This document shows positions 35,190-35,315 of a stretch of DNA of 64,000 nucleotides, in pieces. The DNA lies in NCBI RefSeq assembly GCF_024502345.1, contig NZ_JALDNN010000001.1. The stretch is one strand, 5' to 3'. The translations under genes and the position numbers were made by a program. The stretch comes from Escherichia coli (GTDB taxonomy: Bacteria; Pseudomonadota; Gammaproteobacteria; Enterobacterales; Enterobacteriaceae). Below the pieces are notes generated by a model. The model saw only the letters and a list, made by a program, of their open reading frames with translations. It was not told the origin of the DNA and did not search any database. Positions within the stretch are counted from its first letter, which is position 1. Every line of letters begins with the position of its first letter.

Positions 35190-35315
35190 CGCCTGATGCC
35201 CTCACCCTGACCCTCTCCAACGGGGCTGAGGGACCCCCACATAATAATACCTCCACGGACGGCTCCCTCTCCCTCAAGGGAGAGGGCTGGGGTGAGGGGG
35301 AACATACGGCTGTGG
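35190..35315. repeat. composite palindromic intergenic repeat (copy 1)
   Basis: CCCTCACCCTGACCCTCTCC...CCCTCTCCCTCAAGGGAGAGGGCTGGGGTGAGGG; the same module recurs at 39224..39320. Confidence 0.5.

Follow-up and report, generated by a model that had tools for sequence, protein, structure and literature searches.

The two palindromic modules that flank the tau operon in the window, the 64,000-nt stretch of Escherichia coli DNA analyzed here, are almost certainly ordinary inverted pairs of the BoxC repeat, a family that is already known. We document the dispersal of these modules through E. coli chromosomes, their strong fold-back potential, the different states of the orthologous spacers in related species and the remodelling of the 3' end of an acyltransferase gene. 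An account that joins BoxC identity to the behaviour of structure-prone repeated DNA is likely to be the best explanation as a whole; its mechanistic component, in which the repeat is a substrate for rearrangement, stands at about even chances.

A sequence-only reading of the window had described two palindromic modules around the tau operon, one between mmuM and tauA (copy A) and one after tauD (copy B), and their sequence is as it claimed. The positions it gave also stand, with slightly tighter limits (35199-35298 and 39223-39312). It missed the named family, the composition of each module from two inverted halves and the apparent secondary assembly of copy A.

Identity and anatomy of the modules

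BoxC is a family of short GC-rich interspersed repeats present in E. coli, Enterobacter and many other bacteria. Its synonyms are the PIT element, the TMECO triplex motif (PMC4666352) and the HPG1/HPG2 G-quadruplex-hairpin motif (PMC5100583), and its consensus has been given as CCCTCNCCC-N3-6-GGGNGAGGG-N3-GGGNGAGGG (PMC4666352). A regular expression of this consensus allowing up to two substitutions finds exactly four half-elements in the 64-kb window (Table 1), with no mismatches in either right half and with two (copy A) and one (copy B) in the left halves, which are partly degraded (TGGAGAGGG and GGGAAAGGG, respectively). The 21-nt core GGGAGAGGGNNGGGGTGAGGG, with up to three mismatches, likewise occurs four times, against 0.03 expected from 100 shuffles, and the hairpin core alone identifies one further site at 35645-35666. 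An exact 22-mer, AGGGAGAGGGCTGGGGTGAGGG, is common to copies A and B, and the two modules can be aligned over about 100 columns with every C- and G-block invariant.

Read in its own orientation, each half consists of block 1 (CCCTCNCCC), a first loop of 3-6 nt, block 2 (GGGNGAGGG), a second loop of 3 nt and block 3 (GGGTGAGGG), so that a 9-10-bp hairpin formed by CCCTCNCCC / GGGNGAGGG is followed by a third G-block. In the geometry of a purine-motif triplex, block 3 is a mirror image of block 2, as can be read from the GGGAGAGGG-CTG-GGGTGAGGG of the right halves, and all four halves carry four G3 tracts with 3-nt loops, a G-quadruplex pattern. Each module is a palindrome of about 90-100 bp in which the left half lies on the minus strand and the right half on the plus strand, and the two copies of block 3 are therefore outermost, with CCCTCACCC...GGGTGAGGG pairing together. 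The spacers between the halves (32 nt in copy A and 20 nt in copy B) are unrelated in sequence.

Table 1. Features of the window discussed in the text.
Feature	Position	Strand	Description
mmuM	34203-35135		RefSeq records of identical sequence
ORF overlapping copy A	35141..35482	+	mechanical call
REP	35143-35175		GCCGGGTGGCGGCTACGCCTTACCCGGCC; directly after mmuM
ORF overlapping copy A	35155..35361	-	mechanical call
ORF overlapping copy A	35177..35305	-	mechanical call
Copy A, left BoxC half	35199..35232	-	CCCTCAGCC-CCGT-TGGAGAGGG-TCA-GGGTGAGGG; type-A-like, 2 mismatches
Copy A, spacer	35233..35264		32 nt, ACCCCCACATAATAATACCTCCACGGACGGCT; part of the inserted segment
411-nt segment apparently interrupting an ancestral solitary BoxC hairpin	35234..35644	+	holds the spacer, the type-B half and a structured repeat of ~260 nt
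Copy A, right BoxC half	35265..35298	+	CCCTCTCCC-TCAA-GGGAGAGGG-CTG-GGGTGAGGG; 0 mismatches, CTG loop 2 = type B
Structured dispersed repeat ("RSA-like")	about 35315-35578		~260 nt; within the insertion 35234-35644
Second BoxC hairpin part	35645..35666	+	CCCTCCGCC-CACG-GGGAGAGGG, then AAAAAAC
tauABCD	35809-39221		RefSeq records of identical sequence; tauD stop 39219-39221
ORF overlapping copy B	37992..39278	-	mechanical call
ORF overlapping copy B	39136..39309	+	mechanical call
Copy B, left BoxC half	39223..39257	-	CCCTCGCCC-CTTT-GGGAAAGGG-TTA-GGGTGAGGG(G); type A, 1 mismatch (regular expression 39224-39257)
Copy B, spacer	39258..39277		20 nt, GACTGCCCGGGCGGTTTTCA
Copy B, right BoxC half	39278..39312	+	CCCTCTCCC-TTTTA-GGGAGAGGG-CTG-GGGTGAGGG; 0 mismatches
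Last seven codons (PSPQPSP) and TAA stop of the olsF-like CDS	39289..39312	-	inside the right BoxC half
olsF-like acyltransferase CDS	39289..41013	-	ends ...EAHLIPSPQPSP*; same CDS end in RefSeq

The 23 TMECO copies of E. coli K-12 have been divided into type A, with TTA in loop 2, and type B, with CCG and variants, motif no. 8 with a CTG loop 2 being classed as type B; five K-12 loci hold an inverted A+B pair and 13 of 18 hold single halves (PMC4666352). Both window modules combine the two types in inverted arrangement, copy B with TTA(-) and CTG(+) and copy A with TCA(-) and CTG(+), CCG or TTA being the commonest forms of loop 2 in BoxC generally, as opposed to the CTG or TCA of the window. 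Their outward (-,+) arrangement is that of the K-12 lldD-trmL pair; the inward arrangement is seen in the remaining four pairs of K-12. The tauD-hemB spacer of K-12 contains one BoxC, of type A (388664-388699). The original K-12 GenBank record gave BoxC a length of 56 bp and 33 copies (PMC5172473).

The modules thus share with published BoxC the three-block consensus, the A/B loop variants, inverted pairing, dispersal in many copies over the chromosome, a position at gene ends and scarcity on plasmids and phages, and copy B has before its type-B half the T-rich tract reported to precede HPG2/type B (PMC5100583). Besides the variants of loop 2, they differ from it in three respects: BoxC surveys place every motif between genes, but 24 nt of copy B belong to a coding sequence and include its stop codon; copy A appears to be a secondary composite, unlike the simple published pair; and both copies lie on an Enterobacter-derived segment within an E. 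coli tRNA-Phe island. The genus of that donor is also the one in which the same hairpin core was described earlier, as 100 CCCTCTCCC-XX(X)-GGGAGAGGG palindromes of Enterobacter sp. 638 found "often in duplicate or triplicate at the 3' end of genes", a description that covers the hairpin only, without the third block or A/B pairing (PMC2869309).

REP/BIME elements resemble BoxC in being palindromic, in occurring singly or as inverted pairs at gene 3' ends and in occupying the same two spacers in sister species, but their sequence is unrelated; identity with REP/BIME was rejected because the modules are unlike both the REP of the window and the REP pairs of the orthologous spacers. REPs have a cognate transposase, RAYT, and documented effects on mRNA stability, whereas we know of neither for BoxC. 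Rfam returned no family on either module at the gathering threshold, and a permissive Rfam scan of the modules gave noise-level matches only (E 0.27 to 10).

Copy number and genomic context

Of 5426 complete E. coli genomes, 5356 contain sequences that match copy B. The median is 14 places per matching genome, and chromosomes account for 69869 of the places and plasmids for 44. The 17 genomes with the identical sequence have the repeat at 14-24 places each, mostly 15. The proposal of the sequence-only reading that this is a dispersed element, rather than one confined to two copies without fold-back potential, is borne out by these counts and by the folding described below. Few plasmid records match copy B (300 of 72,556, with many megaplasmids among them) and hardly any phage records do (3 of 50,697). 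An association of the repeat with either seems unlikely given its essential absence from both record sets; yet the window copies ride a tRNA-Phe island, within captured Enterobacter chromosomal DNA.

Metagenome contigs were scanned with the exact string formed by block 2, the loop and block 3, and the figures given here cover the matches listed. Among these matches the contigs span 28-73% G+C, most of them carry block 1 as well, and there are at least seven inward and at least seven outward pairs. The three 9-mers are nearly invariant among the listed matches over this whole range of G+C, which is hard to explain for neutral junk and hints at sequence-specific recognition or function. The spread agrees with the wide distribution published for BoxC. 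Flanks of the family are not definable from the metagenome matches because the organisms are too diverse (28-73% G+C).

Some 9 kb around the modules are at least 99% identical in only 17 of the 5426 E. coli genomes; the identity of these 9 kb to the usual tau-hemB region of E. coli is about 81%. In NZ_CP061749.1, this DNA forms part of an island of about 40 kb that adjoins tRNA-Phe between dsbD/dicD and cadC (4554803-4594422, equivalent to about 21400-61100 of the window). The island holds an integrase, copies or fragments of IS1, IS3, IS30, IS66, IS110 and ISKpn26, a group II intron reverse transcriptase, an autotransporter, a CbtA/YafW-type toxin-antitoxin block and an Enterobacter-derived chromosomal segment with a second hemB, olsF, tauABCD, mmuPM, an AI-2E transporter and a diguanylate cyclase. 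That this segment is captured Enterobacter chromosome follows from its OlsF-like protein, which shares 98% identity with the Enterobacter asburiae one. Since the 17 island genomes are at least 99% identical over 9 kb, no instability is seen on that short time scale. The sole match in the window at the Rfam gathering threshold, the Hfq-binding sRNA isrC (49025-49147, minus strand, 140 bits), lies in the IS-rich part of the island.

Copy B and the acyltransferase tail

Copy B begins one base past the tauD stop and reaches into the convergent olsF-like gene, whose product has Acyltransf_2/Acyltransferase Pfam matches at residues 24-258 and a GNAT-like domain at 322-423. That the module provides the last codons and the stop of this gene, as first proposed from sequence, is confirmed: PSPQPSP and TAA lie inside the right half, with the stop codon in its hairpin loop 1. 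The strictly intergenic location published for BoxC accordingly holds for copy A and fails for copy B, which overlaps the last 24 nt of the coding sequence. This overlap is a departure in position and not in sequence, and it is no argument against BoxC membership. In species without BoxC at this site the native olsF end reads ...YIEAHL*, and wherever BoxC abuts olsF this end is replaced by a BoxC-encoded tail, IPSPQPSP, IPSP, QPSP, APSP or TPSP, whose stop codon comes from loop 1 or is the TAA in loop 2 of a type-A half. Comparison with the K-12 pairs shows the spacer of copy B to consist of the two type-specific 5' flanks, ...CAGT belonging to type A and TTTTCA to type B. Spurious open reading frames on both strands, already remarked upon in the sequence-only reading, are indeed called mechanically over the modules; there are five (Table 1), and none is annotated in the RefSeq records of identical sequence.

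Copy A and the mmuM-tauA spacer

The 673-nt spacer between mmuM and tauA is a mosaic of REP, BoxC pair and structured repeat, in which copy A lies behind the REP, 63 nt past the mmuM stop and 510 nt upstream of tauA. Weak sub-threshold matches to the REP-derived naRNA4 of Rfam cover 35117-35177, where the REP is located.

The orthologous site of E. genomosp. O and E. cloacae DSM 26481 is occupied by a solitary, uninterrupted minus-strand BoxC that is followed by AAAAAAC. BLAST against E. genomosp. O aligns window positions 35139-35233 with 25-118 and 35644-35808 with 96-257, and the overlap of these alignments means that 23 nt of the hairpin are present at both ends of a 411-nt insertion (35234-35644), which is thus flanked by a hairpin repeat of 22-23 nt. 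As judged from these alignments, copy A was probably assembled secondarily from a solitary BoxC and the 411-nt segment, and not inserted as a unit; the type-B half lies in the insertion, so module A would owe its pairing to it, and the hairpin part at 35645..35666 would be the right-hand remnant of the interrupted solitary BoxC. The solitary BoxC is likewise interrupted by 411 nt in E. cloacae M7. In E. asburiae TN152 the stretch corresponding to 35211-35311 is inverted and abuts the tauA leader, the arrangement that would result from a flip of the segment between two palindromic hairpin copies.

The position of the 411-nt segment inside a solitary BoxC hairpin, the repetition of 22-23 nt and the inversion in E. 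asburiae are the basis for a further reading, to which we give little credence, in which BoxC hairpins would serve as recombination or insertion targets for small elements and compete with REP/BIME for gene-end niches. If true, it would imply a hairpin-targeted mobile element, or palindrome-mediated insertion/inversion, undescribed for BoxC.

A REP pair occupies the mmuM-tauA site in E. hormaechei subsp. hoffmannii, E. quasihormaechei and Lelliottia, and the tauA leader is unchanged in orthologues that lack copy A or have REP there. The idea that the two modules delimit a tau cassette was rejected because orthologous tau operons are flanked by REP, a single BoxC or nothing; the composite origin of copy A also means that the modules would not be a cassette boundary for tau, and the flanking of the operon appears incidental. 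Nor does the left flank shared by the two modules establish an origin of copy A as a duplicate of copy B carrying the tauD 3' end, since the flank of the K-12 hrpB-mrcB BoxC is similar (ACGTGCGCGCTGATG).

The string TCGTGCGCCT(T)GAT is found in the left flanks of both modules (35183-35198 and 39207-39222). At copy B it is the native tauD 3' end, present also in REP-bearing species, and the shared flank may reflect an extended BoxC consensus, a preferred target sequence or coincidence.

The 411-nt segment contains, besides BoxC sequence, a second structured repeat that is present in 5425 of the 5426 E. coli genomes at a median of three places per genome, for instance in the asmA-yegH and yohP-dusC spacers. 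It is found upstream of tauA also in E. cloacae M7, Silvania confinis and Leclercia 29361, in the last as an inverted pair. An alignment of seven sequences yields 10 helices with 73 predicted pairs. Compensatory changes are seen in 24 of these pairs, compared with 11.1 +/- 2.0 in shuffles (none of 500 reaching this value) and 1-5 in slid controls, and this covariation is strong evidence for a conserved secondary structure. The E. coli copies match the Rfam family TwoAYGGAY at 31.5 bits (gathering score 43) on the strand opposite to the aligned one, and the window copy gives no match to this family. The repeat is 152 nt long in K-12, where its size and copy number resemble those of the "RSA" repeat (PMC5172473), with which it may be identical. 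In Silvania confinis (locus L017, 13925-13965), short repeats of CCCCA/CCCAA type (CCCAACCCAACCCACCCCACCCCACCCCACCCCACCC) border the structured repeat on its upstream side.

Turnover in related species

The orthologous spacers were compared using one genome per species, a design in which rearrangement in situ and allelic replacement through recombination of the flanking genes are inseparable. At the olsF-tauD spacer, eight loci have a BoxC pair: six in Enterobacter (asburiae, genomosp. O, hoffmannii, wuhouensis, soli and one MAG) together with those of Silvania hatchlandensis and Leclercia sp. 29361. The last two have a 45-nt spacer and the opposite A/B polarity, as given by loop-2 type and type-specific 5' flanks; the palindrome aligns about equally well either way (global identity of Enterobacter against Leclercia/Silvania modules 76/116 versus 78/117 in the two orientations), and the polarity call therefore rests only on those two features. 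E. vonholyi has a single hybrid motif that looks like a collapsed palindrome, a partial deletion in E. cloacae DSM 26481 has removed one block, and Silvania confinis has one motif beside a REP remnant. REP/BIME elements are found instead in at least nine loci, including those of E. cloacae M7, E. sichuanensis, E. chuandaensis, E. quasihormaechei, both Lelliottia, Leclercia UBA3338 and Citrobacter. BoxC and REP/BIME states both occur within Enterobacter, within Leclercia and within Silvania, and the comparison shows fast turnover at both spacers among BoxC pair, collapsed BoxC, REP/BIME or nothing. In one Enterobacter MAG (L014) the whole olsF-tauD spacer is missing, and the 3' ends of the olsF and tauD frames appear to overlap.

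Presence/absence polymorphism at the same site within genera, together with the multi-copy dispersal of the family, is also what would be seen of a MITE-like element, that is, a non-autonomous unit of about 100 bp with terminal inverted repeats, mobilised in trans and inserted in either orientation into gene-end spacers. The outer blocks do resemble terminal inverted repeats, the A/B polarity is opposite in Leclercia/Silvania and Enterobacter, and the identical motif appears, among the metagenome matches listed, in contigs of widely differing G+C. Enterobacterial MITEs (ERIC/IRU) are likewise short, non-coding, palindromic and dispersed, and present or absent at orthologous sites. BoxC pairs nevertheless differ from MITEs in having neither target-site duplication (copy A is flanked by GCGCCTGATG / GGAACATACG and copy B by GCGCCTTGAT / TATTAAATGC) nor fixed length or internal sequence, with spacers of 20, 32, 45 and 59 nt that differ in sequence, and their halves behave independently, being common alone, as at 13 of the 18 K-12 loci. 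Copy A appears to be a solitary half with an unrelated insertion, the repeat is nearly absent from plasmids and phages, and we know of no transposase associated with BoxC. Mobility of this kind is accordingly quite improbable.

Predicted folding and proposed mechanism

Both modules are predicted to fold by Watson-Crick pairing as one long imperfect hairpin. The fold-back of the RNA, whose prediction the sequence-only reading had proposed as a check, is strong, with energies from -58.5 to -69.1 kcal/mol and z from -3.5 to -7.4; the corresponding DNA folds have -24.8 and -27.6 kcal/mol (z -2.6 and -4.0). Neither module has a terminator-like site called at it or a U-tract on either side, the tails being CTGGGGTG and TATTAAAT on the plus strand and ATCAAGGC on the minus strand, and an intrinsic (Rho-independent) terminator was rejected on the grounds that the hairpin has no directly following U-tract and no such site was called.

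The main rival to a DNA-level explanation is a role of the modules, transcribed at the ends of tauD, olsF and mmuM, as very stable 3'-end stem-loops in RNA, equivalent to REP/BIME, in which they would protect the mRNA upstream from 3' exonucleases, attenuate read-through where genes converge or affect translation termination. The strength of the predicted RNA folds is consistent with such a role, as are the positions of the modules, with copy B one base past the tauD stop and holding the olsF stop in a hairpin loop and copy A shortly after mmuM, behind the REP, and the alternation of REP/BIME and BoxC in the same two spacers of related species. By our count from the table in PMC5100583, 17 of 19 K-12 BoxC loci adjoin at least one gene 3' end and seven of the 19 lie between convergent genes, and a role in termination was presumed in the Enterobacter sp. 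638 genome paper (PMC2869309). The missing terminator signature speaks against it, however, as do the cited experiments in which PIT elements had no promoter or terminator activity (PMC4666352) and the location of some K-12 copies upstream of genes or between divergent genes (PMC5100583). An RNA hairpin would moreover leave the conserved third block of solitary elements unexplained, and overall we consider an RNA-level role unlikely, the MITE-like alternative and the switch considered next being less likely still.

This last alternative is a regulatory non-B-DNA switch or protein site, in which the G-rich strand (GGG-N3-GGG-N3-GGG-N3-GGG) would toggle between duplex, hairpin and G-quadruplex or triplex and thereby control promoters or bind a factor. 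It draws on the retention of four G3 tracts with 3-nt loops in all four halves, on the conservation of the blocks over very diverse contigs among the metagenome matches listed and on the G-quadruplex and triplex formed in vitro by isolated oligonucleotides, as seen by CD and NMR (PMC5100583, PMC4666352). Published analyses nonetheless give no link to gene function, no consistent promoter distance and no known transcription-factor motif (PMC4666352, PMC5100583). In the window, copy A is far upstream of tauA, whose leader is the same in orthologues without a copy or with REP, and the left halves have already decayed by one or two mismatches. We regard such a switch as highly improbable.

The reading that we favour, on the basis of the missing terminator signature and of several concrete rearrangements at two sites, treats the repeats as structure-prone DNA that is a substrate for rearrangement. 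The repeats would be non-coding and non-autonomous and would persist in gene-end spacers, where they do little harm. Once single-stranded, their self-complementary blocks would fold, with a hairpin or cruciform predicted, and this folding could promote slippage, template switching, recombination and inversion, so that the main visible effect would be local structural turnover and not gene regulation. We infer a causal role of single-strand folding in the turnover, and likewise the absence of any dedicated regulatory function. Against this reading stand the in vivo DMS footprinting, which gave no support for a stable triplex (PMC4666352), the near invariance of the three 9-mers among the metagenome matches listed and the lack of visible instability among the 17 island genomes. 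Published analysis has found the flanking sequence of triplex motifs to be statistically more variable than that of controls (PMC4666352).

Conclusions

What is specific to these two copies is modest: the contribution of a coding-sequence tail, the secondary origin of copy A, the interchange of REP/BIME with BoxC and carriage on a genomic island. Recognizing the modules as BoxC averts false ORF calls over them and explains the odd proline/serine-rich IPSPQPSP tail of the olsF-like acyltransferase, both in the island and in several Enterobacter species. The orthologous spacers provide sequence-resolved cases of the "instability around triplex motifs" that had earlier been reported only in statistical terms.
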